Positions 7,867-25,044 of a DNA stretch of 64,000 nt are shown one piece after another. The stretch spans positions 416,001 through 480,000 of the forward strand of contig CAWGAA010000001.1 of NCBI GenBank assembly GCA_963820525.1. Reading direction: 5' to 3'. Position 1 is the stretch's first letter, and the number at the start of each line of letters is the position of its first letter. This stretch comes from an uncultured Spirochaetota bacterium (GTDB taxonomy: Bacteria; Spirochaetota; Spirochaetia; SZUA-6; Fen-1364). A program made the position numbers and the translations under genes. The notes beneath the pieces are model-generated. The model had not been told where the DNA came from and ran no database searches. It saw nothing but the letters and a program-made list of their open reading frames with translations.

Positions 7867-7940
7867 GCCTCTCGCTGTTTGCTGCGCAAACAGCTGCCGG
7901 CATGGGGCCTCCTAGCGGTTCGCCTTCGGCGAACCACTAG
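7867..7940. repeat. Intergenic modular hairpin repeat, copy 1
   Basis: GCC-TCTC-GCTGTTTGC-tgc-GCAAACAGC-TGCC-GGC, then CTAG-cGGTTCGCC-TTC-GGCGAACC-a-CTAG. Confidence 0.7.
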
Positions 7941-9976
7941 GGCGGGCTCGGGGTCTTTTCGAATCCCACGCTGAGGTGGTTCTCCCACGATTCTCCGGCC
8001 GCCAGGGAGAGCCGCCATTGGGGCACGAAACAATAGGACTGGAAAATCCGCTCCTGCCCGTCATCAGAATGCGGAGTGACCGTTTCCACGGGGAGGCTCC
8101 AGCAGAGGAACTCACGGGCCGATGAAAGGGTGATGGAGACTTCATTGAGCACGTCGCGGACCAGCAGGCCCCGCACTCCTTCCAGCTCGAAGCGCTCGCT
8201 GGCGAGATCGGTCTTCCTGTCCTCTTCCAGCAGGAAGAGACGGCCGCTTTCGGGAGAGCGGGAGGCGAGGGAGACATTGATCTCCACCGCGAAGCGCGCG
8301 GGAAGCTCCGCCTCTGCCTTGTTGGTCACGCGGTAGTAGACGTCAATGGATCGCGGACGAAAGATGAAGCGCTTCTCTATCTCTACCGGGTGGCTCGTCT
8401 CGCCGACGCGCACGGTCCCGAGCCTCCTCAACAGCACCTCGGGCAGGGAGCGGTTGAGCTCAACGACCTCGTAGAGGCCCTGAAGGAAATCCCCCGTTTC
8501 GGTGAAGCCGACGGCATCGAAGCTCTCGATGCTGCAATCCGGCGCGAGGAAATGGTCCATGAAGGCCCAGCGCGGGAGGCGATCCACGGGCCCCGCCTCC
8601 CGTTTCTTGGTCTGGCCGCTCTCGTCCCTGCGGGCGAAGGTGTCGAGGTAATTCCAAGCCGCGGGGAGGAAATCCAGCTCGAAGAGTACCCCGCCTCTCT
8701 TGTGGATGTAGCCGTTCAGCTCGGAGCCCTGGTAGAGGTACTCGTCATTGGTGTCCATGTCGAAATCGACGCTGATAATCGAGGGGGCGAAGATCTCCGT
8801 GGCGCGCGTGATCTTCTCCGCCTCGATCAGCGAGTGGTAGACGGCCTTCCTCAGGATATTCGAGTAGATGCCGCCGCTCGCTCCATGCCAGTATGCGTGG
8901 TGGCACTGCCCCTTCCACAGCTCGTTCTGCGCCGCTTTTTTCTTGTACTTGTCTCCCCTGACCTGATCCACGAGGATGTGGGTGTATATCATCTTCGCGT
9001 ACATCAGCTCGCCTTCGGGATACCGTGAGAGAAACTGGCGGAAAACGCCCCCTTTGATGAAGGAGGCCAGCTCCTCATCCCCGACGCTGCGCTTGAGAGC
9101 CTCGAGGTAGAGCCGGCGCCGCCGGGGGGGAAGCGCCCAGGCCGCCATCCGGGAAGACGAAGAGCAGGGGACGTAGAGCTTGCCCGCGGGAGCAAGCTCC
9201 CGCATGCAGGAGGTGGGAGTCACCGGCTCCAGCCACTCGGCGTTTTCCATTGCCAGGCGGAAGAACTCCTCGAACCAGCCTCCCGCGAAGCTTCCCCTCT
9301 CTCCGCTGGGCAGCTCCCCCAGACGCGCCCCGTCCTCCAGAAGCACGGCGACCTTCGTCCCCTCCTCGTCCGCGGCCCCATTGAGGAAATCGATCGCCTT
9401 TCCCGCCGTCCCCTCGGGGATGAGAGCGGCGAAGGGGCTCGACAGGGGGAAGATCGTGATGATCTTGCCCTGGTCTTCGGCGATAGCGGGCTGAAAGAGG
9501 TCTTCCTCCTCGACCCCCGCGGACCTGAATTGGCTGTCTTCGAGGAAAGTGTAATCCATTCCGCTGGTGCGCAGGACGGAGGCCATCGAGGGCTCCCAGA
9601 CGTTCTCTGCAAGCCAGCACCCCCGTGCCCGCGTCTCGAAGCGGACCCGCAGGTACGTCGTCATCTTCTCGATCTGGCCGAGCCTGTCGTTCGCCGGGAT
9701 CATCGTCAGAATCGGGTCATAGTACCCTCCCCCGAGAATCTCCACCTGCTTGCGCTTCACCATCTCGGCCAGGAGCATCACGAACTCCGGGTGATGCTCT
9801 TCCAGCCACTCCAGAAGGAGCCCGCTGTAGTGCAGGACGGCGGGAAGGTCGGGGAACGCGTACAGCACGCTGAGAAGGGGCTTGAGAGACTTCTGGTAGA
9901 TGTTCTCGGTCTGGAAATCCGGCTGCCCGATCGGCAGATGGTTGTGCGCACCGATTATCAACCTGATTTTTTTCAT
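7937..9976 (-). CDS. Glycoside hydrolase family 57 (4-alpha-glucanotransferase/alpha-amylase type)
   Basis: HNHLP, HYSG, EILGGGYYDPIL, GCWLAENVWEP (nucleophile Glu), QCHHAYWHG; long C-terminal beta domain. Confidence 0.9.
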   Translation of the reverse strand: MKKIRLIIGAHNHLPIGQPDFQTENIYQKSLKPLLSVLYAFPDLPAVLHYSGLLLEWLEEHHPEFVMLLAEMVKRKQVEILGGGYYDPILTMIPANDRLGQIEKMTTYLRVRFETRARGCWLAENVWEPSMASVLRTSGMDYTFLEDSQFRSAGVEEEDLFQPAIAEDQGKIITIFPLSSPFAALIPEGTAGKAIDFLNGAADEEGTKVAVLLEDGARLGELPSGERGSFAGGWFEEFFRLAMENAEWLEPVTPTSCMRELAPAGKLYVPCSSSSRMAAWALPPRRRRLYLEALKRSVGDEELASFIKGGVFRQFLSRYPEGELMYAKMIYTHILVDQVRGDKYKKKAAQNELWKGQCHHAYWHGASGGIYSNILRKAVYHSLIEAEKITRATEIFAPSIISVDFDMDTNDEYLYQGSELNGYIHKRGGVLFELDFLPAAWNYLDTFARRDESGQTKKREAGPVDRLPRWAFMDHFLAPDCSIESFDAVGFTETGDFLQGLYEVVELNRSLPEVLLRRLGTVRVGETSHPVEIEKRFIFRPRSIDVYYRVTNKAEAELPARFAVEINVSLASRSPESGRLFLLEEDRKTDLASERFELEGVRGLLVRDVLNEVSITLSSAREFLCWSLPVETVTPHSDDGQERIFQSYCFVPQWRLSLAAGESWENHLSVGFEKTPSPP

Positions 9977-9982
9977 AGGCTT

Positions 9983-10573
9983 TCACCCCACGAGGTTTCG
10001 CACGAAAGCTTCGTCAAAGGCGAGGAATGCCATCGCGACGAGCCCCGTTGAAATGAGCAGGATCGGCGCTCCGCGCAGGGCCCTCGGAATCTTCTCCTGA
10101 TCGAGCCTCTCGGCAATCGCCGAGATCAGGACGTACGCCGAAAGAAAACCAAGACCGGCCGCGAATCCCGCGGTGAGGCTTTCCAGCGGGCCGAACGCAT
10201 CCCGCGCGGCGATCAAGGCGATCCCCAGCACGGCGCAGTTCACGCCCATCGAAGAGGGGGAGAAGCCCATGCTCCGAAGGGAGTCCGGCGCCGCTTTTCG
10301 AAGCAGGAGCTCGGCAAGCTCGGCGATGAGGAATACCGCGACGATAAAAGCCGGCGTCTGAAGGTATTCGAGGTGAGCGGGTGAAAGGACGAGCTGCCGG
10401 ATGCTCAACGTCGAAAGGGCCGCCGCGGTCATGAGGAATACGGAGGCGATCCCGAGGGCGACGGCCCCCGAAATCCGCCGCTCGCCGCCTATGCAGGGGC
10501 AGACGCCGAGAAGCTGGGAAAGGACGATGTTGTTCACCAGCGCAAAGGTGAGGACGATCCCGAAGGTGCTCAC
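9983..10573 (-). CDS. rnfA: Rnf/Rsx complex subunit A
   Basis: GTG start 10573; LVNNIVLSQLLGVCP and VNCAVLG motifs. Confidence 0.85.
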   Translation of the reverse strand: MSTFGIVLTFALVNNIVLSQLLGVCPCIGGERRISGAVALGIASVFLMTAAALSTLSIRQLVLSPAHLEYLQTPAFIVAVFLIAELAELLLRKAAPDSLRSMGFSPSSMGVNCAVLGIALIAARDAFGPLESLTAGFAAGLGFLSAYVLISAIAERLDQEKIPRALRGAPILLISTGLVAMAFLAFDEAFVRNLVG

Positions 10574-11217
10574 TGCTTCTCCCCCTTGCGTCCCTCGGTG
10601 AGCATCCTCTTCGCCGCAATGAGGTACCCCAAGAGCAGGAGCCCTCCCGCGGGAAGCGCAAGGATGCGTACTGAGGTGTCCTTCAAACCGCCAAGCTCGA
10701 TCCTGCCGGAGAAGGCGCCAAAGGGCGGCAGGCTGATGGCTCCCGAGCCGATCGCCTCCCGCAGGACAGCGATGAGCAGGATGCCGGTCGCAAAACCGAT
10801 GCCCAATCCAGCGGTGTCCGCGAGGGCTTTGGCGGTTCTGGCGTTCCACGAGAACACGGCCGTCCGGCCCAGGATCAGGCAGTTGACAGCGATGACGGGA
10901 AGGTAGATGCCGAGCCTGCCCCGTGTCTCCGGCAGCCATGCGCTCAGGAGGAGGTCCAGCGCCCCCACCAGGGCGGCTACAAGGACAAGTGAAATGAAGG
11001 CGCGGGCCCTCGGAGGAGACTGGGGAGCCGGCAGGAGGATGCGAAAGGGCTGTGTGAGCAATGCCGTCGCTATCAGCACGCAAAAAACCCCAAGAGAAAG
11101 GACCAGGGCGTCGAAGACACGGGTTGAAACCGCGATCGCCGGGCACAATCCCAAAAGCAGCGAGAAGAGAGGGTTCTCTCTGACGATTCCCGCCGAGATT
11201 TCGCTCCTCCGGCTCAT
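10570..11217 (-). CDS. rnfE: Rnf/Rsx complex subunit E
   Basis: ENPLFSLLLGLCPAIAV and YLPVIAVNCLILGR motifs; ATG 11217. Confidence 0.85.
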   Translation of the reverse strand: MSRRSEISAGIVRENPLFSLLLGLCPAIAVSTRVFDALVLSLGVFCVLIATALLTQPFRILLPAPQSPPRARAFISLVLVAALVGALDLLLSAWLPETRGRLGIYLPVIAVNCLILGRTAVFSWNARTAKALADTAGLGIGFATGILLIAVLREAIGSGAISLPPFGAFSGRIELGGLKDTSVRILALPAGGLLLLGYLIAAKRMLTEGRKGEKQ

Positions 11218-12314
11218 GCACCGCCTCCCGCGGCACGGATGGCCGCGCCCGGCCGGAAAAGCGAATCGAGGAGCGGAACCCCGCAGTTCATCACGATGAT
11301 GGCAAGCGATACCCCTTCCGCGAGGGATCCGTAGAACCTGAGGAGAAACGTGAGCGCACCCAGGCATGCCGCGTACGTCATACGCGCGCGAAAGCTGAGG
11401 GGCGATGTCACCGGGTCAGAGGCCATGAAAAAGGCGCCCAGGATGATACCTCCCGCAAGGAGGTGAAACAGGATGTCCCCGGAAAAGAGTCCCTGGCCGG
11501 AGCTTATGCCGCCAAGCGTCCACGTGAGGGCAACGAACGTGATGAGGTAGGCGGCTGGAATCTCCCATCGGATCACCCTCCGCGCGAGCAGGAAAACGGC
11601 TCCCGCCAGAAGGAGCAGAGGAGAGATTTCTCCGATGGGGCCTGCAACGTTTCCCAGCAGAAGGTCCACGCAGCCTCGAGGAGCGCTGATGCCGAAGGGA
11701 CCGAGGAGGTGCGCATTCAGCCATTCCACCACGGAAGAATCAATCGAGCTGAACGGATACCCTTGAGCGCGAAGGATCTCGAAGGGGTCTCCCCGAGGAC
11801 CTGATGGGTCTGCGAGAGCGGCGAGGACCGAGGCGAGAGGAGTGGATGCGCCGGCGTGGGCGACGGGGAACAGGCCCGGGGCCGCAAATCTTCCCATGGC
11901 CTGCCGCCATGAAAAAAGAACGAATACGCGGCCGGCGATGGCGGGGTTCATCCAGTTTTTCCCCAGCCCGCCGAAGCTCTCCTTGACGACGAGGATGGCG
12001 AAAACCGACGCTGCTGCGGGAACGAAAAGGGGCACGCCGGGAGGCATGAGGCAGCCAACCAGGAGGCCCGTGAGAAACGCGCTCCCATCCAGCAGCGTGA
12101 ACCGCCGGGCAAGGAGCCCCGTCAGGAGCTCTGAGATCAAAGCCGAGCCGACCGAAACTGCCATGACGGCAAAAGCGGAAGGGCCGAAGACGAACACGCC
12201 CCATGCCCCGGCGGGAAGAAGGCTTGCGGCAACGCTCCAGATCATCCCGGTGGTGGTCTGACTGCCCGAGATGTGCGGAGAACGGACGGCTGCCGGAGGT
12301 CGAGTTTCTTTCAC
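11214..12314 (-). CDS. rnfD: Rnf/Rsx complex subunit D
   Basis: GTG 12314; SPHI, FGGLGKNWMNPA, ASTPL (putative FMN-Thr), GPIGEIS, FMASDPVTSP. Confidence 0.9.
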   Translation of the reverse strand: MKETRPPAAVRSPHISGSQTTTGMIWSVAASLLPAGAWGVFVFGPSAFAVMAVSVGSALISELLTGLLARRFTLLDGSAFLTGLLVGCLMPPGVPLFVPAAASVFAILVVKESFGGLGKNWMNPAIAGRVFVLFSWRQAMGRFAAPGLFPVAHAGASTPLASVLAALADPSGPRGDPFEILRAQGYPFSSIDSSVVEWLNAHLLGPFGISAPRGCVDLLLGNVAGPIGEISPLLLLAGAVFLLARRVIRWEIPAAYLITFVALTWTLGGISSGQGLFSGDILFHLLAGGIILGAFFMASDPVTSPLSFRARMTYAACLGALTFLLRFYGSLAEGVSLAIIVMNCGVPLLDSLFRPGAAIRAAGGGA

Positions 12315-12319
12315 GGCCG

Positions 12320-13603
12320 TTATACCCGCGCCGCCATGAACTTGCCGCGCCGCAGCCCTTCCACGAGGGGCATTGCCGACGGGCAGGCGTAAGCGCAGCA
12401 GCCGCACTCGGTGCATGCGAGGAGCCCTTCTCGGGCGGCTCCACGGCAGTCTCCGCGCTCCACGAGACCATACAACCGTGTGGGGGCCAGGCCCCAGGGA
12501 CACGCGTCGATGCATGCGCCGCAGCGGATGCACGGCAGGGTCCTGCGATGGGCGTCCCGCCCCGCGAAAGCGAGGACCGCTCCCACATCCTTGGTGATGG
12601 GCACGGCAAAGGAGCTCTGGGCGCGGCCGGTCATCGGCCCGCCCAGCACGATCGAGGCATATCCCTGGATGAGCCCACCGCACTCGTCGAACAGCTCTCC
12701 CGCCGGCGTTCCGAGCCTGACCTTGAGGTTGCGGGGGCGGACCACAGCGGGCCCGGCCACGGTGACGATTCTCTCGATGAGCGGCTTATCGAGCGCCACG
12801 GCCTCCCAGATCGCGTGGATTGTGGCCACGTTGAGAACGAACGCGCCCGGTGCCTGAAGGACGGCGGCGAGCCTCGACTCCTCACCCTGCGGGTATCTGG
12901 CAGCCAGGACCTCGACGCTGTATTCGCCGCCCAGATCCCGGAAGATGCGCTCGAAGATCGGCGCCGCGTCCTGGGAATCCTCTGAAACCGCCAGCACCGC
13001 GCGTTTGGCGGCGAGAATCCTCTGGACGATCCTCATCCCCTCGGCGACTTCCCGGGATTTTTCAAGCATGAGCCGGTGATCCGCGCTCAGGAAAGGCTCG
13101 CTTTCAACTCCGTCCGCGATAAAGGCTGAAACGCCCTTCCCCTGTGCCGAGGCGAGCTTCGCGTGGGAGGGCAGCCTGCTTCCGCCGAGCCCCACGACCC
13201 CCGCCGCCTTGATCCGCTGGATCAGCTCCGGCACCGACAGGCCTTCCCAGACGATGGGGCTTCGGCTCCGGCCGGACCTGTCGAACTCCCCTTCCAACTC
13301 GATGAACGCCGCCGTCGAGCTTTCACCGCTTGCCACGGAAACGGTTCCGACATCGGCCACCCTGCCGGGGATGGAGGCATGGACGTTCGCAGAGGACTCG
13401 CCTTTCGCCCTTCCTATCAGCATGCCTTCGCGGACCGCCTCACCGGGCTTCACGATGCAGTCAGCGGGTTCACCCGCGTGCTGGCGCATCGGGATCACGG
13501 CGAGCGAGGGAATCGGGGCATTGGAAATCGGCTGGAGGCGCGTTTCTTCCTTGAAGGAGGGCGGCTTCACGCCTCCCCTGGCGAAGGTCTTCAAGCGGGT
13601 CAT
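12320..13603 (-). CDS. rnfC: Rnf/Rsx complex subunit C
   Basis: GVVGLGG, ESEPFLSAD and two 4Fe-4S motifs CIRCGACIDACP and CTECGCCAYACP. Confidence 0.9.
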   Translation of the reverse strand: MTRLKTFARGGVKPPSFKEETRLQPISNAPIPSLAVIPMRQHAGEPADCIVKPGEAVREGMLIGRAKGESSANVHASIPGRVADVGTVSVASGESSTAAFIELEGEFDRSGRSRSPIVWEGLSVPELIQRIKAAGVVGLGGSRLPSHAKLASAQGKGVSAFIADGVESEPFLSADHRLMLEKSREVAEGMRIVQRILAAKRAVLAVSEDSQDAAPIFERIFRDLGGEYSVEVLAARYPQGEESRLAAVLQAPGAFVLNVATIHAIWEAVALDKPLIERIVTVAGPAVVRPRNLKVRLGTPAGELFDECGGLIQGYASIVLGGPMTGRAQSSFAVPITKDVGAVLAFAGRDAHRRTLPCIRCGACIDACPWGLAPTRLYGLVERGDCRGAAREGLLACTECGCCAYACPSAMPLVEGLRRGKFMAARV

Positions 13604-15294
13604 GCGTGACGATTAAAACGCCAAAGCTTGTTCGAGATCAAGGGGCCGAACCGTGAGCCGGCGAGCAGCACGGCGGCGAGGGCAAGGAGGCAGACGATCG
13701 GGAAAGGCAGCTCGCGAAGCGCGAGAAGCGCCGGACCTCGGATGCTCACGGAAGGAGGGGCGCCCTGATCGAGCAGCATCCGTTCGACGCTGCCCGGGCG
13801 CATCCGCAGGGCGACGCCGGCCAGCCAGGCCGAATCGAACGCCTTCACGGTCCGCTGGATCGCGATGATGCGCCTGCTGTCCGCGTTCCAGATGTACTCG
13901 GTGATCCTCACCCGCTCGTCCCGCGCGGGCAGCCGGTAGCTCCTGCCGAAGGAGAGGCCCTCCTGGTATGCCGCGTGAGCAACGGCATCGGAGAGATCCG
14001 GCGGTCCCGATCGAGGTCTCGCGAGCCGTTCTTCGATGTAGTCCCATGAAAGCCCGCGCGCAGCCGGGATCGCCGCCGGGGCCGGAAGCGCCGCGCCTCG
14101 AAGCATCGAAAGAACTGTCAGGAGCACGGTCGCCGCTGCGGCGAGCGCGAGAAGCTGATAACGAAACGCCAGGGGCTTGCTCTCACGGCGGACGATTGCA
14201 ACGGGCTCGAAGGGGGTGCGTTTCCGCCTGCCGCCCTTGCGCATTGCGGCGAGGGGAAACGGTACGAGGAGAATCAGCAGGGAGGACATGAATGGCGAAA
14301 GCATCGAAAGAGGGATCATCGGGGAGGCGCCGCGAGCCACGCCGCTCAGAATCAAAAGAAGAACGGACGGAAAGAGGAATTCGAAAAGCCTTTCAATCAA
14401 CTCCCCCAAGGCCGAATCCTTCCACCTGCGATCCCGCACATGGAGTATCGTCTCTCGGGCATAGAGACCGCTCTCTTTCAGAAGATGGAGCCAGGGCACC
14501 GAAAGCAGGAAGAACAGGCACAGTCCCGCAGTCCCGCTCTCCACGACAGCGGGAAGCCACACTGCGGCATGGAGGAACAGCAGGGCGTGAAGGCCCCTGC
14601 TCCTCCTGCCCAGGGAGAAGGAGAGAAGAAGTGAGAAAGCCAGGGCGCTCGCCGTCATGATGCCGACCTGCGCGGGATCGAACTCCAAGAGCCTCCAGGA
14701 AGAGAACGGCAGGCCGAGCAGGAAAACGAGCCTCGCGAACAGAGCCCCCGGATTCCTGTACGAGGGTATGTAGGCGATCTCCCACTGTCCGGCGGGATCC
14801 GCAGAAGAGAAGTAGCTTCCGATCCCCATGAGGAAAGGATCGAAGCGCGGGTCTTTGGCGTCGAGCCTGGCTGCGAGCTCCTCCATGCTGCAGCTCGTCA
14901 TGCCTTCGAAGTCATTGAAGGAGACGCTCGCCGTGAAGCGGGACACGGCCGGACGCCCGGCGCCAAGGCTGGGTGACAAGAGCGAGAGCCTCCCCTGCGC
15001 CGCCGAGCCCTTTCTGACCAGGAGCGTGTCGTATCCCCTCCAAACCGTGGTGAGCTTGGGGATGAGCGGGAGGAAATGCCGGGCGACGAGCGACGCCGCG
15101 ATGGCCGCGAGCAGCATGGGCAGAAGCGCCGGGTCCCGCAGAATAGAGGCGTTCCGGGGCGCTTTGCGCATTCGAGCCGCCGTCGTGGAGGCGTTCCGGG
15201 GCGCTTCGCGCAATCGAGCCGCCGTCGTGGAGGCGTTCAGGGGCGCTTCGCGCAATCGAGCCGCCGTCGTGGGGGTGCGTCTCATCCGCTTCAC
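13600..15294 (-). CDS. Multi-pass membrane hypothetical protein with an N-terminal 14-aa tandem repeat; start may be ATG 15285
   Basis: Several hydrophobic segments; ATGA overlap with rnfC. Confidence 0.6.
   Translation of the reverse strand: MKRMRRTPTTAARLREAPLNASTTAARLREAPRNASTTAARMRKAPRNASILRDPALLPMLLAAIAASLVARHFLPLIPKLTTVWRGYDTLLVRKGSAAQGRLSLLSPSLGAGRPAVSRFTASVSFNDFEGMTSCSMEELAARLDAKDPRFDPFLMGIGSYFSSADPAGQWEIAYIPSYRNPGALFARLVFLLGLPFSSWRLLEFDPAQVGIMTASALAFSLLLSFSLGRRSRGLHALLFLHAAVWLPAVVESGTAGLCLFFLLSVPWLHLLKESGLYARETILHVRDRRWKDSALGELIERLFEFLFPSVLLLILSGVARGASPMIPLSMLSPFMSSLLILLVPFPLAAMRKGGRRKRTPFEPVAIVRRESKPLAFRYQLLALAAAATVLLTVLSMLRGAALPAPAAIPAARGLSWDYIEERLARPRSGPPDLSDAVAHAAYQEGLSFGRSYRLPARDERVRITEYIWNADSRRIIAIQRTVKAFDSAWLAGVALRMRPGSVERMLLDQGAPPSVSIRGPALLALRELPFPIVCLLALAAVLLAGSRFGPLISNKLWRFNRHA
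15146..15271. repeat. Three tandem 42-bp repeats, in frame in the membrane protein gene
   Basis: Units 15146-15187, 15188-15229, 15230-15271; consensus GAGGCGTTCCGGGGCGCTTCGCGCAATCGAGCCGCCGTCGTG. Confidence 0.95.
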
Positions 15295-15300
15295 GGTGTT

Positions 15301-15783
15301 TCAGAGAGTGCAGAATGCGACGGCTATGAAAAACCCCAGAATGGCCCCGACGAAAACCTCGGAAACGGTATGGCCGTGGATCTCCTTCACGGTCTTGATG
15401 CGAATGGTGGAGTGCTTGGCCAGGTACTTGATGATCTGATTGATGGCGCGAGCCTGATGGCCCGCGGCGCGCCGCACGCCGAAGGCGTCGCGAAAGGTGA
15501 GAAGCGCGTAGAAAAGCGTCACGAAAAAGAGCGGCGAGTCGGCTCCTTCCACGAATCCGATGGACGTCGCCAGCGAGGCGACCAGGGCGGAGTGGCTGCT
15601 GGGCATGCCTCCCGTTGCCCAGAAGATGTTCAGCAATATCTCCTTTGCAGTATGCGGGCGGTTTCTGAGCAGGGCGATGCACGACTTGAGCAGCTGGGCA
15701 ATGAACCAGCTGGAGAAGGCGGACAGGAAGATGGGATTCCCGAGGACTCGCGTCGCAATATCGACGGCGCCTTGCGGTATCAT
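15301..15783 (-). CDS. Divergent PAP2 family protein (DUF212, acid phosphatase/haloperoxidase-related)
   Basis: TGGMPSSHSA, DAFGVRRAAG and GHTVSEV motifs. Confidence 0.9.
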   Translation of the reverse strand: MIPQGAVDIATRVLGNPIFLSAFSSWFIAQLLKSCIALLRNRPHTAKEILLNIFWATGGMPSSHSALVASLATSIGFVEGADSPLFFVTLFYALLTFRDAFGVRRAAGHQARAINQIIKYLAKHSTIRIKTVKEIHGHTVSEVFVGAILGFFIAVAFCTL

Positions 15784-15791
15784 CGGGGTTG

Positions 15792-15820
15792 AGTTTTCCG
15801 CGGAGCGCGAGCATTGTCAA
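15792..15820 (-). promoter_or_regulatory. Putative sigma70 promoter of the DUF212-rnf operon
   Basis: TTGACA-17-AAAACT (imperfect -10)-8 nt-ATG. Confidence 0.5.
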
Positions 15821-15924
15821 GGCCACGTGTGCGCCGAAGGCGCACGCTGATGGGGCCCCGGGGCTCTCGCTGTGTGCCCGGCGGCGTCGGCGCGAAGCGC
15901 GACGCCGCCGGGCTGCCGCCCTGG
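15821..15924. repeat. Intergenic modular hairpin repeat, copy 2
   Basis: GTGTGCGCC-GAA-GGCGCACGC followed by GGGC-TCTC-[GCCCGGCGGCGTCG..GCGAAGC..CGACGCCGCCGGGC]-TGCC-GCCC. Confidence 0.75.
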
Positions 15925-15970
15925 TGATAGCGCCGGCGCCTTCGCGAATGCCCGCACAAGCACCCATTTC

Positions 15971-15999
15971 TTGACAGGCGAAAGAGATGTCACTACTAT
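15971..15999 (+). promoter_or_regulatory. sigma70 promoter of mla operon 1, near-leaderless
   Basis: TTGACA-17-TACTAT-8 nt-ATG(16008). Confidence 0.7.
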
Positions 16000-16007
16000 C
16001 CGGCTGT

Positions 16008-16790: not shown

Positions 16791-17536
16791 TACGGGTGCG
16801 GGGCGTCACCTTCGCCTTCCCGAGCCACACCGTGCTGGACGGCCTGAGCGTCGACATCGAGGAAACCCGAACGACGGTGATCGTCGGCAGGAGCGGGATC
16901 GGCAAGTCGGTCCTCCTCAAGTGCATCACGGGGTTGCTTCGGCCGCAGAAAGGCAGCATCACGATCGAGGGGGACGAGGTTGTCGGGGCGGGCCGCCGGG
17001 AGCTCCTCGCCATCAGGCGCAGGATCGGGATGCTCTTCCAGGAAGGGGCTCTCTTCGATTCCATGGACGTCTACGCCAACGTGGCGTTTCCCCTCGTCTA
17101 CCATAAAAGCGCCACGTCCGCAGAGATCGACCGGAGGGTCCACGCGTTCCTCGACCTGGTGGGAATGCGCGAATCTGCGCACGCGCTCCCCCAGGAGCTT
17201 TCCGGCGGCATGAAGAGGAAGGTGGCGGTGGCCAGGGCCATGATCCTCGAGCCGAAGTATCTTCTCTACGACGAGCCGACCTCGGGGCTGGACCCGGAAA
17301 GCTCCGCGATCGTCGAATCGATGATGAAGCGCCTTCAGGAGGAAAGCTCCATCACCTCACTGGTGGTCACCCACGACATCGATCTCACGCGCTACATCGG
17401 TGACCGTGTCGCGCTCCTGGAAGACGGAAGGATCGAGACGGTGAGCTCCCGGGACGAGGCCTTCCGGGAGGGCTCGCCGATTTACGATCATTTCATAGAG
17501 AAACGGGAAAGGATCCGACTGGGAAATGCAGGTTAA
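16787..17536 (+). CDS. mlaF: MlaF/Mkl family ABC ATPase
   Basis: ATG 16787; GRSGIGKS, FQEGALFDS, LSGGMKRKV, LYDEPTSGLDP, VTHD. Confidence 0.9.
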   Translation: MIRVRGVTFAFPSHTVLDGLSVDIEETRTTVIVGRSGIGKSVLLKCITGLLRPQKGSITIEGDEVVGAGRRELLAIRRRIGMLFQEGALFDSMDVYANVAFPLVYHKSATSAEIDRRVHAFLDLVGMRESAHALPQELSGGMKRKVAVARAMILEPKYLLYDEPTSGLDPESSAIVESMMKRLQEESSITSLVVTHDIDLTRYIGDRVALLEDGRIETVSSRDEAFREGSPIYDHFIEKRERIRLGNAG

Positions 17537-18470
17537 AGCCAGCAGAGTCGTGAGGGTTTTCGTCATCACCCTCGTCGCCATAGCGACATCGGTATTTCTC
17601 TACCTCCTCATCAACAACTTCCAGTTCCGGCGCGGCACCACGGTGCGCGTCCATTTCAACACGGTCGGAGACCTGAACCCCGGAGCCTGGGTCCGCAAGG
17701 CGGGCGTCAAGGTGGGTTCCGTAACCAAGGTGGAGCCGGCCCCCGACGAGAAGACGGTCATCGTGAGCCTGACGTTCCGGCCGGGAGAAATCGTGCGAAT
17801 GGGCGACAAGTTCTCCCTGATCTCCAAGGGCATCCTTGGAGACGTGTATATCGAGCAGATCCCGGGGCCCAAGAGCGTCCAGGAGGTCCAGCAGGGGCAC
17901 CTCTTCGAGGGAGAGCCCTTCTTCAGCCTCAACGACCTGCTTGGCGGCAGCGGAATGCAGCTGGTCTCGGACGTGGGCTCCAGCATCAAGGTGATCGGAG
18001 ATATCTTGAGGAAGAACGAGGCCTCACTGAACAGCACCATCCAGGACATCCAGAAAACGGCGGCCAATGCGCGCGTGATCTCCGAGAACGTCGCCGCTGC
18101 GACGAAGAGCCTGCCGGAGCTCTCGGCCCAGGTCGTTTCCACCCTTCAGGAGATGGACACGACGCTTCGCGAGCTTCAAGCGACGACGGACAGGCTGGCC
18201 GCGACGCTGGAAGGAAACCTCTCCTCGGGATCTGAGGACCTGGCGGCCTCTCTGAAATCCATTCGAAAGACTTCAAACGATATCCAGCTCATCGTCGAGC
18301 AGCTCTCGGCGAAGGGCTCCGTGATCGGCACATTGAGCTCGCCCGAGACCTCCCAGCGCGTCGATGAAACGCTGAAGAATCTCCAGGCCATCTCGGCCTC
18401 GCTCTTGAAGACGTCCCAGGAAACCGAAAAAATCGTGGAAGGGGTCCGTTCGGTTCTCGGCTCTCCCTGA
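17526..18470 (+). CDS. mlaD: MCE/MlaD family protein with long helical C-terminus
   Basis: N-terminal TM; GDLNPGAWVRKAGVKVGSV MCE motif; coiled-coil tail. Confidence 0.85.
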   Translation: MQVKASRVVRVFVITLVAIATSVFLYLLINNFQFRRGTTVRVHFNTVGDLNPGAWVRKAGVKVGSVTKVEPAPDEKTVIVSLTFRPGEIVRMGDKFSLISKGILGDVYIEQIPGPKSVQEVQQGHLFEGEPFFSLNDLLGGSGMQLVSDVGSSIKVIGDILRKNEASLNSTIQDIQKTAANARVISENVAAATKSLPELSAQVVSTLQEMDTTLRELQATTDRLAATLEGNLSSGSEDLAASLKSIRKTSNDIQLIVEQLSAKGSVIGTLSSPETSQRVDETLKNLQAISASLLKTSQETEKIVEGVRSVLGSP

Positions 18471-18515
18471 ACAGGCAGCCTGCCCGGGGGCTCCGGCTTT
18501 CGCTCTCTCTGCGCC

Positions 18516-18544
18516 TTGACAAATCGTACGTATACGTATATTTT
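18516..18544 (+). promoter_or_regulatory. sigma70 promoter with a palindromic operator in the spacer
   Basis: TTGACA-17-TATTTT; perfect 12-bp palindrome TACGTATACGTA at 18527-18538. Confidence 0.65.
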
Positions 18545-18595
18545 ACACATAAATTGACCCCGTTCGACCGCTTACAGATAAAGGAGCCCCCCCAC

Positions 18596-20031
18596 ATGAT
18601 CAGAAAGATAACCTTCGTCGAGCCGAAGACGGACCACCTTCACATCTATTCCCGCTACGAGCTTCCCCGCCTTGGAGGAATCCTTCTGGCGACGATCCTG
18701 AAAAACGAGGGATTCCAGACCGAAGCGGTCTTCATGAAAACACGCGATATCCTGCGCAGGAGGACGGAGGCCGACCTGGTGGCCATCTCCACGATCACTC
18801 CAACCGCGGAGAGCGCCTACGCCCTTGGAGACGAGTTTCGCGCCCGAGGCATTCCCGTCGTCTACGGAGGGCCCCATGTCACCTTTTTTCCCGAGGAAGC
18901 CCTCGAGCATGGAGACTACTGCATCGTCGGGGAAGGAGAGCGGTCCATGCCGGCCCTCGCCCTGGCCCTGAACGGAGAGGGCCCCTTGAGCGAGGTTCCC
19001 GGCCTCGTGTGGAAGGAGAACGGAGTGGTGCGGCGAAACCCTCCCCCCCTCCCGTGGAGAACCTCGACGAGCTTCCGTTCCCCGATTTCTCCCTTATGGA
19101 CATGGGCGCGAACAAGCGGATGGGAAGCGTCGGGTTTGGGCATTTCATAATCCCGATACAGACCTCGCGCGGCTGTCCCTTCGACTGCACATTCTGCTCC
19201 GTCACGAAGATGTTCGGCAAGCGCTACAGGCACCGGTCCACCGAGAACATCCTGGCGGAGCTCTCCCGCTACGACTCCAAGCAGCACTATATCTTCTTTT
19301 ACGACGACAACTTCGCCGCCAACAGCAGGAGGACCAAGGAGCTTCTGCGGGAGATGATATCCCGCAACCTCGGTTTCAAGTGGTCCACCCAGGTGCGCGC
19401 CGATGTGGCGCGCGATCCGGAGATGCTCGACCTGATGGTCAGCGCGGGATGCACGACGCTCTATATCGGCTTCGAGTCCGTGGATCCGGAATCTCTCAAG
19501 GAGATGAAGAAAAGCCAGACCGTGGAAGAGATCAGGATCGCCATCGCGGAGATCAGGAAACGCAGGATCCACATCCATGGAATGTTCGTCTTCGGCTTCG
19601 ACACGGACACCCCCGAGAAGGCCCGCGCCACGGTGAGCTTCGCCATCAAGGAAAAAATCGACACGACGCAGTTCATGATCCTCACCCCCCTTCCGGGCAC
19701 CGAGATGTACTTCAAGCTGGACAGGGAGAAGAGGATCATCGATCACGAGTGGGAAACCTTTGACGCGCACCATGTCAAGTTCCGCCCCCTCCATTTCACC
19801 CCGTGGGAGCTGCAGCTGGCGCAAATCGAGGCGCATACCCGTTTCTACTCGCCCCTACAGGTTTTCCGCAGGCTCCTCCGGGGCAGGACCGGGGGTTTCA
19901 TCGTGGGCATCTATGCCCATGCGCTCAACCGCCGCTGGCAGAAGGCCGAAAAAGCGTACCTCGCTTTCCTTCAAACGGCCGCCGTCGGGCTGCGCGCGGC
20001 GGTATCCCGAGGCAGGGCCGCCCAGAGCTGA
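18596..20031 (+). CDS. B12-binding radical SAM protein, split by a frameshift near 19043-19049 (pseudogene, phase-variable, or sequencing error)
   Basis: AAGGAG RBS, ATG 18596; frame 1 has the cobalamin-binding GGPHVTFFPEEA/IVGEGE; frame 2 has LDELPFPDF, TSRGCPFDCTFC and IGFES; the switch occurs in a C7 run. Confidence 0.85.
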
Positions 20032-20092
20032 AGCCTCCATTTGCATTGCGGCGTCCGGGGTGTACATTACAGTTTAACCGGACGCTGAGCAG

Positions 20093-20737
20093 ATGAAACT
20101 TCCCTCTTTCATTCGCCGCCTGATCCCCTGGCTCGCTCGAAGGCCGCAGATCTATGCTCTGGTGGGAAAGAGCGGAACGGGCAAGAGCTTCAAGGCACGG
20201 GCGGTTTCCCAGCGGTATCGAATCGACCTCATCATCGATGATGGGCTTCTCATCAAAGGGCAGAAGATCGTCGCCGGCAAGTCCGCCAAGCGGGAGAAGG
20301 GGATCCTGGGCGCGATCAAGACAGCCCTCTTCGTCAACCCGGACCAGGTTGCCGAAGTGAAGAAGGCCCTGGCTGCGGAAAGCTACCACCGGATACTGCT
20401 CATCGCCACATCGGTCAAGATGATCGAGCGCATCAGGAAGAACCTGGAGCTTCCTCCCCTGCAGAGAACAATCTCGATAGAGGATGTCTCCAAGCCGCAG
20501 GAGATCGCCGCCGCGCTCGCGGTCCGGGCGAAGGAGGGCAAGCACATCATTCCGGTGCCGGCCGTGGAGATAAAGAGGAACTATCCCCATATCTTCTTCG
20601 AGTCCATCAAGATCCTCTTGAAGGGAAGGACCTTGCCGAGGGCGAGAAAGGACGCCTTCGTCGAGAAGACCGTTGTGCGGCCCGCCTACGGCAGAATGAG
20701 CCCCTCGCCGTCGAAAAAGATCGAAAAATCCATTTGA
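20093..20737 (+). CDS. P-loop protein of unknown function
   Basis: Walker A ALVGKSGTGKS followed by IIDDGLLI and SAKRE. Confidence 0.7.
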   Translation: MKLPSFIRRLIPWLARRPQIYALVGKSGTGKSFKARAVSQRYRIDLIIDDGLLIKGQKIVAGKSAKREKGILGAIKTALFVNPDQVAEVKKALAAESYHRILLIATSVKMIERIRKNLELPPLQRTISIEDVSKPQEIAAALAVRAKEGKHIIPVPAVEIKRNYPHIFFESIKILLKGRTLPRARKDAFVEKTVVRPAYGRMSPSPSKKIEKSI

Positions 20738-20762
20738 CAGGCAAAACCCGTCGCACTATGAT
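20734..20762 (+). promoter_or_regulatory. sigma70 promoter
   Basis: TTGACA-17-TATGAT, followed by AAGGAGG RBS and ATG 20780. Confidence 0.75.
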
Positions 20763-20779
20763 TTGCAAAAGGAGGCATT

Positions 20780-21976
20780 ATGCGGAAAATCCTCATCGCG
20801 GCCCTTTTTTTCTGCGGATGCTCCTTCGCCTTCGCACAGGAAATGAAGTTCTTCGCCTCCGAGTCCGCCCACTACAGGGTCTCCTCGGAGACGAGCCAAT
20901 CCCAGGCGGATGAGGTCTCCCGCATCATGGAGGCCAGCCTCTCCCTCTATAACGGAATCTTCCACTTCGACCTGTCACAGCTCCCGGGCAAGCTGCAGGT
21001 GAAGGTATTCAAGAGCGTCGACACCTTCAACGGATACCTCAACAACCTCCTGTCCCAGACCAGAAGCGATTTCGTCTTCGTTTCCTATGCGGATCCCAGC
21101 AAATCCGAGCTCCTCGCCTTCACGAAGGACGCCGCCAGCTTCCTCCCCTCCCTCATCCATCAGGGCTGCATCCAATTCCTGAAGGCTTTCATCGCGAATC
21201 CGCCGGTATGGCTTCGGGAGGGGGTCGCCACGTACCTCGAGGCCTCGCAGTACGACTCGAAAACGACGGCTCTCACCTTCAAAGCGAACTATCTCTGGCT
21301 CGACTCCTTGAAGGCAATCATGAGGGGCGAAGGCACCGCTCCCCTCATCCCCTTCTCGGATTTCCTGCTCCTCAACCGGGATACCGCTCAAGCGCAGCTC
21401 GACGTGTTCTATCCCGAGGCCTGGGGGCTCGTGACATTCCTCCTGCGCTCCCCGGACACGACGGACAACCGCATCATCTGGGACGCGATATCCGTCCTGG
21501 ATCCAAAGGCGTCGCTCGACGACAACTCCCAGGCCGTTCGCAGGCGCGCGTTCTCCTGGGTAAGCGACCAGACGCTCGCGAAGAGCTTCGCGAGCACCAT
21601 CGAATCCTTGAAAACCCCCCAGGAGCTTCTGCGCGGCGGGGTCGATTTCTACGCGAAGGGAGATCTCGATCAGGCCGAAAAATCGTTCCTCGCCTCCCTC
21701 GAGCAGGAGCCCGGCTCCAATGCTGCATACTACTACCTCGGGCTCATCGCATATTCGCGAAAGGACTACTCCCGCGCCGAGCAGATGTACGGCCAGGCCG
21801 CCAAGCTGGGCATCCCGACCAGCCTGGTGGACTATGCGCTGGGAGTCAATGCGTTTGCCGGCGGGAAGCTCGCCGATGCGGCCAATTATCTGAAGCTCTC
21901 CAAGGATGCCGACCCGAAGAGCTATGGAGACAAGGTGGATGTGCTTCTCAAGCGCATCGACGCCATGAAGAACTAG
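20780..21976 (+). CDS. Exported TPR protein with a degenerate zincin-like (DUF1570-type) N-terminal domain
   Basis: Signal peptide; LIHQGCIQF..PPVWLREGVATYLE; YPEAWGLVTFLL; C-terminal TPRs. Confidence 0.7.
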   Translation: MRKILIAALFFCGCSFAFAQEMKFFASESAHYRVSSETSQSQADEVSRIMEASLSLYNGIFHFDLSQLPGKLQVKVFKSVDTFNGYLNNLLSQTRSDFVFVSYADPSKSELLAFTKDAASFLPSLIHQGCIQFLKAFIANPPVWLREGVATYLEASQYDSKTTALTFKANYLWLDSLKAIMRGEGTAPLIPFSDFLLLNRDTAQAQLDVFYPEAWGLVTFLLRSPDTTDNRIIWDAISVLDPKASLDDNSQAVRRRAFSWVSDQTLAKSFASTIESLKTPQELLRGGVDFYAKGDLDQAEKSFLASLEQEPGSNAAYYYLGLIAYSRKDYSRAEQMYGQAAKLGIPTSLVDYALGVNAFAGGKLADAANYLKLSKDADPKSYGDKVDVLLKRIDAMKN

Positions 21977-21993
21977 GCCTGCATGATTTTTGG

Positions 21994-22020
21994 AAAGCCC
22001 CCGTTCGAAGGGGCTTTTTT
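21994..22020 (+). terminator. Rho-independent terminator, possibly bidirectional
   Basis: AAAGCCCC-cgttcgaa-GGGGCTTT-TTT between convergent genes. Confidence 0.8.
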
Positions 22021-23170
22021 ATTGGAGAGGCCGGGCGTGATGCTGGCCGCCTTCGGCAACCCGCCTCTTGTGCTCACCCGGCGATCTTGCCGTGAAGCGG
22101 TGAGCGGCGCGCGGGAACTGTTTGCCCGCTGCATGCCGGAACTCCCTCAACAGCTCGTGGGCGGCCACCCCGAGGTCGCGCTTCGAGGGGAAGAGCGGAA
22201 ACGACACGGATTTGATGAGCTGCTGGAGCAGGAAGGCGGGATCGGAGTCGTGAAAGATGTCCTTCCGCGCCAGCGTCAGATCGCGGAAAAGGAAGACGAA
22301 CATCCTCTCTCGCTCCAACGGCTGTCCCTCTTGCAGGAGCGAGTCGAGGCTCTGCGCCCTCTTGTACAGTGGGGAGTCCGAGAACTTCTTGTACGCGTCC
22401 TTGATGAACTCGGAGAGGGCCGGAAACAGCGAATCGAAGAGCTTCAATCGGTGCGAAATCTCCAGGATTTCGGCAGCACAACCCGATGTGAGGATTTTGT
22501 AGACTTCTTCGGTCACACGCTCGCGCGAACATTCCAAAAGCGATTCCCGCATCCTCTTGATGAGCCCCGCCATCCCCATCGGTATGGGGAAGCCGGTAAT
22601 GCTCGCATACTTGACGGCGCGGATCATGCGTACCGGGTCTTCGGCGAAGGATGTCTCAGCCGGGATGAGCGTGCGCAGGTGCTTGTGCCGGATGTCCGGG
22701 AAGCCTTCAACGTAGTCGATGATCTGTTCGTCGACGGGACAGTAGTAGAGGGCATTGAAGGTGAAATCGCGCCTCTGGGCGTCTTCCTCCATCGTGCCGA
22801 ACAGGTTGGTCGACTCGGCGGCCTTGTTGGAGCGGAAGGTCGTCACCTCGAGGAACTTGTCGCGTCCGGCGTATACGTGGACGATGCGGAACCGCTTTCC
22901 AATGATGCGGGATGAGCGGAAGATGCGTCGAATTCTTTGGGGAAATGCGTCCGTTGCGACATCGAAATCTTTCGGTTTTCTGCCGAGAAGCATATCGCGA
23001 ACAGCACCGCCGACGATATAGGCGTGGAAGCCTTCCTTGCGCAGGCGCCTGACCACCCAGACCGCATCCGCATCCACCGAGCCCGGGTCTATGCCGTGCT
23101 CCTGCCGGAGGTAGATGTGGGCCTTCTTTACGATCTCTCCTTCTTGCGAAGTGCCGTACCTAAGGAGCAA
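22019..23170 (-). CDS. pcnB: Poly(A) polymerase PcnB; probable TTG start at 23170
   Basis: VGGAVRDMLLGRKPKDFDVAT, IIGKRFRIVHV (PAP-specific signature), RRDFTFNAL, EDPVRMIRA. Confidence 0.9.
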   Translation of the reverse strand: MLLRYGTSQEGEIVKKAHIYLRQEHGIDPGSVDADAVWVVRRLRKEGFHAYIVGGAVRDMLLGRKPKDFDVATDAFPQRIRRIFRSSRIIGKRFRIVHVYAGRDKFLEVTTFRSNKAAESTNLFGTMEEDAQRRDFTFNALYYCPVDEQIIDYVEGFPDIRHKHLRTLIPAETSFAEDPVRMIRAVKYASITGFPIPMGMAGLIKRMRESLLECSRERVTEEVYKILTSGCAAEILEISHRLKLFDSLFPALSEFIKDAYKKFSDSPLYKRAQSLDSLLQEGQPLERERMFVFLFRDLTLARKDIFHDSDPAFLLQQLIKSVSFPLFPSKRDLGVAAHELLREFRHAAGKQFPRAAHRFTARSPGEHKRRVAEGGQHHARPLQ

Positions 23171-23265
23171 GTATTCGATCCCGACAACCGCTTTGTGTCG
23201 CATTCTATCCTAGCGACTCCTCGAAAAAAGTCAAGGCGCCGGTGCGGCAGCGGCGCTGCGCTTCC

Positions 23266-23386
23266 CCGAGTGTGCGCCTTCGGCGCACACTCGGTCCTAG
23301 GGCGCTCCCCAGGGCTCTCGCCGTTTGCTCCTGGAGGTGTCGCGCTTCGCGGCTCTCGCGGTGCAGCAACACCGCTGCCGCCCTAG
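23266..23386. repeat. Modular hairpin repeat, copy 3, left part (interrupted by the IS)
   Basis: CCGAGTGTGCGCC-TTC-GGCGCACACTCGG; GGGC-TCTC-GCCGTTT; nested GGC-TCTC-GCGGTG..CACCGC-TGCC-GCC. Confidence 0.8.
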
Positions 23387-24920
23387 GAGCCTGTCGCGAA
23401 ACCCTCTTCCGGGAAGCCATTGAATTGAAGGTCCCGGCCATTGATAGAGTGGCCGCATGGGAGAGGGAACTTTTCGATCCTATCAGCCTGATCAGCCGTA
23501 CCTCCTTCCACCCCGAGTGGATGAATGGCTGCCCGACGGCCACTTGGTGTACTTCATGCGCGACGTGGTGGAAACGCTGGACCTCGAGGCGATTTATTCA
23601 AGCTATCAATTGAGCGAAGGCGGACGTCCGCCGTACGAGCCGCGGATGATGCTGGCCTTGGTTCTGTATGCCTACAGCGTCGGGGTATACAGTTCGCGAA
23701 AGATCGAGCAGGCCTGCTGGGAGTCGGTGGCCTTTCGGGTACTCAGTGCGGATCAACATCCCGACCATGCGACGATCGCCAGCTTCCGCAAGCGGCATTT
23801 GAAGGAGTTGGGGTTGTTGTTCAACCAGGTGCTGAAGCTGTGCCAACGGGCGGGGTTGGTGAAGTTGGGGCACGTGGCGCTGGACAGCACGAAGGTGAAA
23901 GCCAACGCCTCCAGGCACAAAGCGATGAGCTACGGGCGAATGCTGAAGAGTGAGCAGCGGCTGAACGATGAGATCGCGGCGCTGTTGAAGCGGGCGCAGC
24001 GTGAGGATGAAGAAGAGGACGCACGCCTGGGGCCCGGGGGCAAGGATGAGGATCTGCCCGAGGAGTTGAAGCGGCGGCAGACGAGGCTGGCCAGGATTCG
24101 GGAAGCCAAGGCAGCGTTGGAAGCCGAGGCGCAAGAGAAAGCAGAGGAAGAGGCTCGGCGCAAGGGGGGAGACCCTGGGGCCGCCGGTGGGAAGGGGCGG
24201 GCGGAGGTAAAGCCAGCCGAGAAGGCGCAACGCAATTTCACCGACCCGCAATCGCGGATCATGCTGGACAAGTCCAGCAACAGCTTTGTGCAGGCCTACA
24301 ATTGCCAGGCGGCGGTCGACGGGAAGGCCCAGGTGATTGTTGCCGCCGAGGTCACGCAGGAAACCAACGACAGCCGTCAACTGCATCCGATGCTGGAGAA
24401 GCTCAAGGCCAACACCGACGGGCAACTTCCCCGGCGTCTGACTGCCGACAGTGGCTACTACAACGGGGAGCATGTGCAATCCCATGAAAAGGAAGTGGAC
24501 CTCTACATTGCTACCGAGCAGTTCCGCCATGGGGAGCGTGTACCGGCTCCGAGGGGGCGCATTCCTTCCGGATTGAGCAAGAAGCAACTGATGGGGCGCA
24601 AGGTGCGGAGCGCACGGGGGCAACGGATCTACGGGAAGCGTAAACAGATCGTGGAGCCGGTATTCGGGCAGATCAAGGAAGCGCGGGGCTTTCGTCAGTT
24701 CTTGCTTCGTGGGCTGGAGAACGTCTGGGGTGAATGGCAAGTAGTATGTACGACGCACAACCTATTGAAGCTGTTCAGAAGCGGATGGAGATTGAGCGAA
24801 GCGTAGGAGAGAGAAGGAATCCCGGCTCGATGACAAGTTGAGTTGGGGGCGCCTCATCATGAAAACGGCCCGCTCGCCTACCACAAACGGAGACTTGCGG
24901 GCCGGTTTCGCGACAGGCTC
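23387..24920 (+). mobile_element. IS1182-family insertion sequence, 1534 bp
   Basis: Perfect 17-bp terminal IRs GAGCCTGTCGCGAAACC (23387-23403) and GGTTTCGCGACAGGCTC (24904-24920); CTAG direct repeats at 23383-23386 and 24921-24924. Confidence 0.92.
23457..24806 (+). CDS. IS1182 family DDE transposase
   Basis: GRPPYEPRMML, YSSRKIE, PDHATIASFR, ALDSTKVKANAS, TDPQSRIM, ADSGY, RKQIVEPVFGQIK. Confidence 0.92.
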   Translation: MGEGTFRSYQPDQPYLLPPRVDEWLPDGHLVYFMRDVVETLDLEAIYSSYQLSEGGRPPYEPRMMLALVLYAYSVGVYSSRKIEQACWESVAFRVLSADQHPDHATIASFRKRHLKELGLLFNQVLKLCQRAGLVKLGHVALDSTKVKANASRHKAMSYGRMLKSEQRLNDEIAALLKRAQREDEEEDARLGPGGKDEDLPEELKRRQTRLARIREAKAALEAEAQEKAEEEARRKGGDPGAAGGKGRAEVKPAEKAQRNFTDPQSRIMLDKSSNSFVQAYNCQAAVDGKAQVIVAAEVTQETNDSRQLHPMLEKLKANTDGQLPRRLTADSGYYNGEHVQSHEKEVDLYIATEQFRHGERVPAPRGRIPSGLSKKQLMGRKVRSARGQRIYGKRKQIVEPVFGQIKEARGFRQFLLRGLENVWGEWQVVCTTHNLLKLFRSGWRLSEA

Positions 24921-24992
24921 CTAGGGCCGACGCCGCCGAAACGGCTGCCGCCCCGGGGCCTCATGAGTGTGCGCCGAAGGCGCACACTCGGC
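24921..24992. repeat. Modular hairpin repeat, copy 3, right part
   Basis: GCCGACGCCGCCG-AAACGGC-TGCC-GCCC and GAGTGTGCGCC-GAA-GGCGCACACTC (reverse complement of the 23268 hairpin). Confidence 0.8.
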
Positions 24993-25044
24993 TTGACACT
25001 CCCGCGGGCGAAACGTAACACTGAATGTCGCTTGAGGAGGAGCA

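Follow-up and report, generated by a model that had tools for sequence, protein, structure and literature searches.

Repetitive extragenic palindromes (REPs) are among the commonest bacterial repeats, and to our knowledge an enzyme is known only for those of the GTAG type. In the sections of Di Nocera et al. 2013 (PMC3733652) that treat their classification, REPs fall into the GTAG and CGTC superfamilies, REPs nested in palindromes are noted, and the CGTC REPs, defined by a CGTC tag, an 8–9-bp stem starting with A-T pairs, a 4–5-nt loop and a CCA tail, are described as lacking a dedicated transposase. The REP types located at tnpA-REP genes all carry a GT[AG]G foot or form atypical weak structures, according to the corresponding part of Quentin et al. 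2018 (PMC6006769). Here, we analyzed a 64,000-nt stretch (the window) from an uncultured Spirochaetota bacterium (assembly GCA_963820525.1, contig CAWGAA010000001.1), which covers C1:416001-480000 of a 5.05 Mb genome with 60% G+C and four contigs, and in which three loci carry hairpin modules with the layout outer stem-TCTC-inner stem-TGCC-outer stem. These modules are real, small and probably mobile DNA hairpin repeats, and what is conserved in their family is the hairpin shape with two short unpaired motifs, not the stem sequence. With moderate confidence, we assign the family to the REP and bacterial interspersed mosaic element (BIME) kind: small palindromes of non-coding DNA that act as a folded single strand, without a REP-associated tyrosine transposase (RAYT), and are served by an enzyme in trans.

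Conserved loops and covarying stems

Every hairpin with a 4x4 internal loop was enumerated in the genome, with one hairpin countable in several loop registers, and the 384 instances obtained fell into 248 loop-pair types. TCTC/TGCC ranked first with 26 instances, followed by TCCC/TGCC (13) and TCTC/TGAC (6), and all other pairs reached five or fewer; a looser module listing gave 25 loci, about three of them chance-like. The core pattern TCTCGC-N3-TTGC-N3-GCAA-N3-GCTGCC, in which the outer stem and three of the inner pairs are unconstrained, has seven matches in the genome, and the same pattern read backwards has none in 41 genomes. The loop letters occurred 48 times in the forward genome versus 14 times in the reversed one, a control that tests the loop letters only, since reversal preserves hairpins and makes the reversed genome invalid for hairpin counts. 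A covariance model (R1) built from 84 distinct 45-mers recovered at least 22 simple copies in this genome at E ≤ 1 when the best 150 of about 2800 candidates were scored, with nested copies besides. The initial annotation had postulated a family from four modules, and both further genomic copies and an excess over chance were found.

The alignment of 84 distinct copies, drawn from 81 or more loci, bore out its further suggestion that structure rather than sequence is conserved. A total of 92.0% of the cells were paired versus 75.0 ± 0.9 in shuffles, and the doubly changed cells numbered 166 versus 63.4, a count that 0 of 500 shuffles reached; all six free stem pairs vary on both sides, as covarying stems should, and slid-register controls gave pairing of 25–49% only. 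Both loop halves are conserved, as are the closing pairs, and the stem letters vary freely yet stay complementary. Azospirillum soli harbors 13 copies of one composite of about 130 bp, in which TCTC and TGCC (or TGTC) are kept and the stems occur in four different, fully complementary forms, with even the TTGC/GCAA core replaced. The description of these copies as a hypervariable stem in a fixed frame was set aside, as the contrast is modest (pairwise identity of 0.73 inside versus 0.80–0.87 in the frame).

The two strands of the hairpin are not equivalent. On the written strand, 35 cells of the inner stem have a C.A or A.C mismatch and one cell has G.T, so the wobble pairs lie on the GGCA...GAGA strand. 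A GNA triloop was observed in 51 of the 84 copies on the GGCA strand versus one of 84 on the other, and the GGCA strand is predicted to be the more stable in 82 of 84 copies with RNA parameters and in 77 of 84 with DNA parameters. The wobbles, the triloops and the predicted stability all point to GGCA...GAGA as the folded strand, which for the module at 7867..7901 would be the minus strand; the initial remark on a purine-rich opposite strand with C-GAA-G mini-hairpins was borne out, and that strand bears both wobbles and GNA triloops. Together with its closing pairs, the apex on this strand reads GCGNAGC, which the relevant passage of a 2026 review (PMC13037366) describes as an extraordinarily stable DNA mini-hairpin with a melting temperature of 76.5 °C, while r(GCGAAAGC), the RNA version of the tetraloop form, is given there as melting at 39 °C.

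Direct reading of the window located the four modules of the initial annotation, the four GCC-TTC/GAA-GGC hairpins beside them, and the third module on both sides of an insertion sequence (IS), with GGGC-TCTC-GCCGTTT at 23312-23326 and AAACGGC-TGCC-GCCC at 24939-24953 (Table 1). The common layout of the modules stood, but their description as four versions of one unit did not: three module types are nested in one another, and at 15861-15921 the inner stem follows TCTC only after seven extra bases (15869-15875), apparently the orphaned 5′ arm of an earlier module. The loop, which had been called invariant, also occurs elsewhere in the genome with the variants TCCC, TGAC and TGCT.

Distribution, nests and filled sites

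The core pattern was detected in eight of the 24 other genomes of the same spirochaete family and in none of 16 genomes from seven other families of the order. Model R1 extended this to 20 of the 24 family relatives, with 1–15 matches per genome, again gave no match in 16 genomes of sister families (seven families of the same order), and found 5–35 copies per genome in five proteobacterial genomes. A wide scan for the core pattern, with one genome per prokaryotic species, yielded 81 loci, whose carriers are Spirochaetia metagenome-assembled genomes (MAGs) related to the window, many Rhodobacteraceae (Shimia, Tateyamaria, Leisingera, Amylibacter and others), Azospirillum, Reyranella, Neomegalonema and several gammaproteobacterial MAGs; a few loci came from MAGs labelled Mycobacterium leprae, Clostridia or Cyanobacteria, labels that are possibly wrong. 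The distribution is patchy and wider than expected, comprising one spirochaete family and distant proteobacteria, with nearer relatives searched without it. In this genome, the genes flanking the modules are unrelated, housekeeping ones.

Paralogous sites with and without a module were observed inside genes for IS91-family transposases (Y2_Tnp + Zn_Tnp_IS91). About 40 bp containing the module are present at C1:1261995 and C1:1270008 and missing at C1:1300973 and C2:24630, all four sites lying in IS copies that are 97–99% identical, and the filled form was also found in four related Spirochaetia MAGs. A further case is the 5S rRNA gene at C3:326834-327033 (locus L133:235-432), the second of two tandem 5S genes, in which about 75–78 nt with two nested modules occupy loop D, the apical loop of helix IV, with the GGCA strand as the 5S sense strand. 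This gene scores 65.4 bits with the Rfam model versus 99.5 for its intact neighbour, and seven of the eight 5S copies in the genome are without the insert. By comparison of filled and empty sequences, these sites suggest insertion. In Rhodobacteraceae, the 16S-23S spacer also contains modules (L052, L053, L054, L081 and L084), which lie between the tRNA-Ile and tRNA-Ala genes or follow them; their orientation differs between genera, which suggests independent arrivals in rRNA operons.

The mosaics, nests and tandem arrays observed agree with the BIME-like organisation proposed initially. Modules were found inside other hairpins that also exist intact in the genome, and on the folded strand the first bases of the nested copies in this genome read CTAG or ATAG; GTAG or GTGG occurs in some Rhodobacteraceae copies. 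The nest of the window has an uninterrupted paralogue at C1:299714-299915. Between convergent genes at C2:239933-240197, four tandem 77-bp units each carry a TCCC/TGCC module, with a 20-bp perfect hairpin at the end of the array. Arrays in other genomes have periods of 66–116 bp, and in Tateyamaria an inverted pair of modules lies 117 bp apart. The companion hairpins are constant beside the modules: perfect GCC-TTC/GAA-GGC hairpins with a stem of at least 7 bp number 14 in the genome, and seven of the 14 lie within 100 bp of a module. The possibility that TCTC|TGCC is an empty target frame which receives hairpins was rejected, as no such empty frames were found.

The IS that splits the third module has five copies in the genome, 99.8–100% identical and each located at a CCCTAGGG-like site where CTAG is duplicated. 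A 4019-nt wetland metagenome contig of about 98.6% identity covers 19381-23387 and then continues directly with the 13 bases next to the far end of the IS in the window, which means that an IS-free allele exists in a related strain. Though the IS was considered as a specific hunter of the module, only two of its five copies lie in modules and all five at CCCTAGGG-like sites, and therefore sequence choice suffices as an explanation.

The genes flanking the simple module at 7867..7901 are convergent. The composite module at 15861..15921 sits between divergent genes for DUF212 (−) and MlaE (+), and the nest lies between divergent genes of poly(A) polymerase type and GNAT type, all of them confirmed with Pfam. 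TTGACA −35-like boxes abut the outermost composite hairpins and point outward on both sides (15951-15980, 24990-25020 and several paralogous loci); the composites appear to occupy the stretch between divergent promoters that is not transcribed. At 15890-15913, runs X1 and X7 show a related strain in which the nested hairpin has its bulged base on the 3′ arm instead of the 5′ arm, which is the kind of change expected from template switching in a palindrome.

Table 1. Modules, companion hairpins and the insertion sequence located in the window.
Feature	Position	Strand	Structure	Covariance model score
Simple module	7867..7901	+	GCC-TCTC-9 bp stem-TGC loop-9 bp stem-TGCC-GGC; 3-bp outer stem	60.8 bits
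Companion perfect hairpin	7917..7935	.	GGTTCGCC-TTC-GGCGAACC, CTAG on both sides	
Companion hairpin	15829..15845	.	GTGCGCC-GAA-GGCGCAC	
Composite module	15861..15921	+	GGGC-TCTC, putative orphan 7-nt arm, nested 14-bp GC-rich hairpin with GCGAAGC apex, TGCC-GCCC	
Companion hairpin	23266..23294	.	13-bp stem, TTC loop	
Left part of three-level nest	23312..23386	+	5′ half of outer module 23312-23326, 5′ arm of middle hairpin 23333-23350, inner module 23351-23382, CTAG target 23383-23386	
Innermost module, complete	23351..23382	+	GGC-TCTC-GCGGTGC-..-GCACCGC-TGCC-GCC	32 bits
IS5/IS1182-type insertion sequence	23387..24920	+	1534 bp, 17-bp terminal inverted repeats, CTAG duplicated at flanks	
DDE transposase of the IS	23457-24806	+	449 aa, DUF772 + DDE_Tnp_1 domains	
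Right part of nest	24921..24953	+	duplicated CTAG, 3′ arm of middle hairpin 24926-24937, 3′ half of outer module AAACGGC-TGCC-GCCC 24939-24953	
Companion hairpin	24965..24989	.	11-bp stem, GAA loop; TTGACA −35-like box directly after, for gene starting at 25045	

Candidate enzymes and described systems

In the reading that we prefer, the unit is a hairpin of about 35–45 nt. Along its folded strand, the short outer stem is followed by GGCA and by a 9-bp stem that G-C pairs close; the GNA triloop forms part of the GCGNAGC apex, after which come the return arm, GAGA and the outer stem again. This hairpin would form on single-stranded DNA, for example on the lagging-strand template, where an enzyme acting in trans may recognise the purine-rich internal loop together with the hairpin shape and copy or move the hairpin as HUH enzymes do with REPs. 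In this genome, such an enzyme would not be a RAYT; it may be another enzyme or one that is no longer present.

Several observations weigh against a mobile DNA hairpin of this kind, several of them from the search for the enzyme. A search with PF01797 found no RAYT in this genome, only five IS200 copies, which are 99.8–100% identical over about 570 bp, carry their own unrelated hairpins and have no module within about 1.5 kb. All matches to single-tyrosine (Y1) transposases in the 24 family relatives are IS200-like, and PF01797 found nothing in three of the five carrier genomes (the complete Tateyamaria genome, A. soli and an alphaproteobacterial MAG), while the two gammaproteobacterial carrier MAGs have RAYT-like genes of about 300 aa. 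Among the Y1 loci of the relatives and carrier genomes, 0 of 40 were flanked by a module, the model giving one noise-level match (E 0.96). With no REPtron arrangement either, RAYT was rejected as the partner, and the RAYT link proposed initially did not hold. The IS91-type Y2 transposases, with 17 matches in this genome (C1, C2 and C3), several of them truncated and two interrupted by a module, were likewise rejected, as they are absent from the alphaproteobacterial carriers, and no recurrent neighbouring gene was seen by eye among 62 flanking open reading frames, on which no Pfam search was run. Furthermore, at the filled sites in the IS91 genes and the 5S gene neither a target duplication nor clean ends nor a constant junction could be made out, because of which deletion or template-switch origins are possible. 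Copy number is low, at about 20–35 per genome, and DNA palindromes can acquire compensatory changes without selection acting on them. With a cumulative GC skew that is weak and lopsided, the origin could not be placed, nor could the orientation of the modules relative to replication be read; finally, the G.T wobbles and the strand bias beside tRNA genes described below fit an RNA hairpin equally well.

Among the described systems, the modules are most like REPs, BIMEs and REPINs, which RAYT (TnpA-REP) enzymes mobilise. As characterised in the relevant parts of PMC6006769 and PMC3733652, these are short imperfect palindromes with many intergenic copies, in which an internal mismatch region gives the hairpin polarity and stems vary within a family; they form inverted doublets, clusters and mosaics with other hairpins, insert into other palindromes and occasionally genes, and are targeted by IS elements. 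However, in contrast to RAYT-linked REPs, the modules have no general 5′ GT[AG]G tag, a candidate feature that was dropped, as NT[AG]G within 9 nt on the folded strand was only weakly enriched (21 of 84 copies versus 10 of 84 in the control flank), and there is neither a RAYT gene in this genome or three carrier genomes nor a REPtron. The conserved part of the module is the 4x4 internal loop with the mini-hairpin apex; its core occurs in more than one phylum, whereas REP families are usually lineage-specific, and many copies in this genome lie between divergent genes. The CGTC REPs are similar in being palindromic, common in Alphaproteobacteria, reported in Spirochaetes and apparently without a dedicated transposase, as far as the account in PMC3733652 goes, but none of the parts of the definition published there (tag, A-T stem start, loop and CCA tail) is matched by the aligned module copies.

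The likeness to other single-strand systems is more distant. The subterminal hairpins of IS200/IS605 elements are also imperfect single-strand hairpins, recognised there by shape by a HUH enzyme, but the five IS200 copies of this genome carry unrelated ones. Integron attC sites share recognition of a folded single strand by structure and an unpaired central spacer; however, the R″/R′ and L″/L′ boxes with the GTTRRRY core (GTT/AAC) were not seen when the aligned copies were read, with no profile search, and the modules are shorter, dispersed and not at cassette boundaries, the carrier genomes not having been searched for integrons. Unlike miniature inverted-repeat transposable elements, the modules show no target-site duplication at the filled sites, and their ends do not match those of the ISs inspected in this genome. 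No Rfam family matched the motif at the gathering score or at E ≤ 1, so no catalogued family was identified there, and no description of the motif was found in the literature, though the REP consensus lists in the figures and supplements of PMC3733652 and PMC6006769 lay outside this search and could hold a related family.

Alternative readings and meaning of the family

An alternative which we consider unlikely is that the modules are inert relics of an old palindromic repeat, in which pairing is kept by palindrome-templated correction (template switching or gene conversion) and the shared loops reflect common descent only. The low copy number and the failure to find an enzyme agree with this, as does the bulge that moves between the arms at 15890-15913. 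However, templated correction should erase a non-complementary 4x4 loop, and TCTC/TGCC is kept across spirochaetes, Alphaproteobacteria and Gammaproteobacteria with stems differing at the majority of positions. The absence from all 16 sister-family genomes argues for a later arrival rather than an old relic, and the filled and empty sites in young IS copies argue for recent events.

A structured RNA, which the initial annotation had offered beside a REP/BIME-like element, appears similarly improbable. In that case, it is at the transcript level that the GGCA...GAGA hairpin would work, perhaps as a 3′-end stabiliser, a terminator or a processing signal for mRNAs, tRNAs and rRNA spacers, which would suit the restriction of the wobbles to one strand. 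When flanking coding strands were assigned with a crude caller at the 81 loci, 16 convergent, 17 tandem and three divergent contexts were obtained, so that the majority of copies follow at least one gene, and the GGCA strand was the sense strand of the adjacent tRNA in nine of 11 tRNA-linked loci, as it also is in the 23S-5S spacer and downstream of a 5S gene in this genome. tRNA-type genes usually run with the replication fork, and the bias therefore fits the lagging-strand template just as well. In tandem contexts, nine copies run with the genes and eight against them, hence with no orientation preference, and at least nine of about 22 loci in this genome, among them the second and third loci of the window, have divergent genes on their two sides and are upstream of −35-like boxes; both results favour DNA over RNA. 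Two internal transcribed spacer copies of Rhodobacteraceae and three rRNA-operon copies here stand in opposite orientation, copies lie inside a transposase gene and a 5S gene, and the lack of an Rfam match speaks in the same direction. The apex motif is also much weaker as RNA, going by the melting data quoted from PMC13037366. A search for RNA runs containing the region gave none. Of the two possibilities first proposed, the REP/BIME-like repeat family was upheld by the covarying stems, nests and arrays, apart from its RAYT link, and the structured RNA is the weaker.

It is very improbable that the modules are duplex operators, bound by a dimeric protein at TTGC-N3-GCAA half-sites, for although the symmetric TTGC...GCAA core is invariant, it was fixed by the search pattern itself and A. 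soli swaps it for other complementary pairs, while duplex binding needs no covariation of the NNN and outer pairs, leaves the one-strand wobbles and GNA loops unexplained and does not suit copies within genes and in arrays.

Returning to the mobile hairpin, it is conceivable, though we would not yet expect it, that the modules represent a RAYT-independent, horizontally spreading class of hairpin-invading single-stranded DNA elements, marked by the GGCA/GAGA loop and the GCGNAGC apex and mobilised by enzymes of a family that has so far not been connected with REPs. If true, the loops of other hairpins, including those of structured RNA genes (5S loop D, rRNA and tRNA spacers), could receive such elements, and the stem, with its free covariation, would serve purely as a signal of shape, common to spirochaetes, Alphaproteobacteria and Gammaproteobacteria. 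The family illustrates how nested mosaics are built and how they enter rRNA genes. Its sharp signature, consisting of two fixed 4-nt loop halves and an ultra-stable one-strand DNA mini-hairpin, together with its free stems and cultured carriers (Azospirillum soli, Tateyamaria and Leisingera), provides a handle for finding the missing partner of RAYT-less REPs and for testing action as DNA versus RNA.

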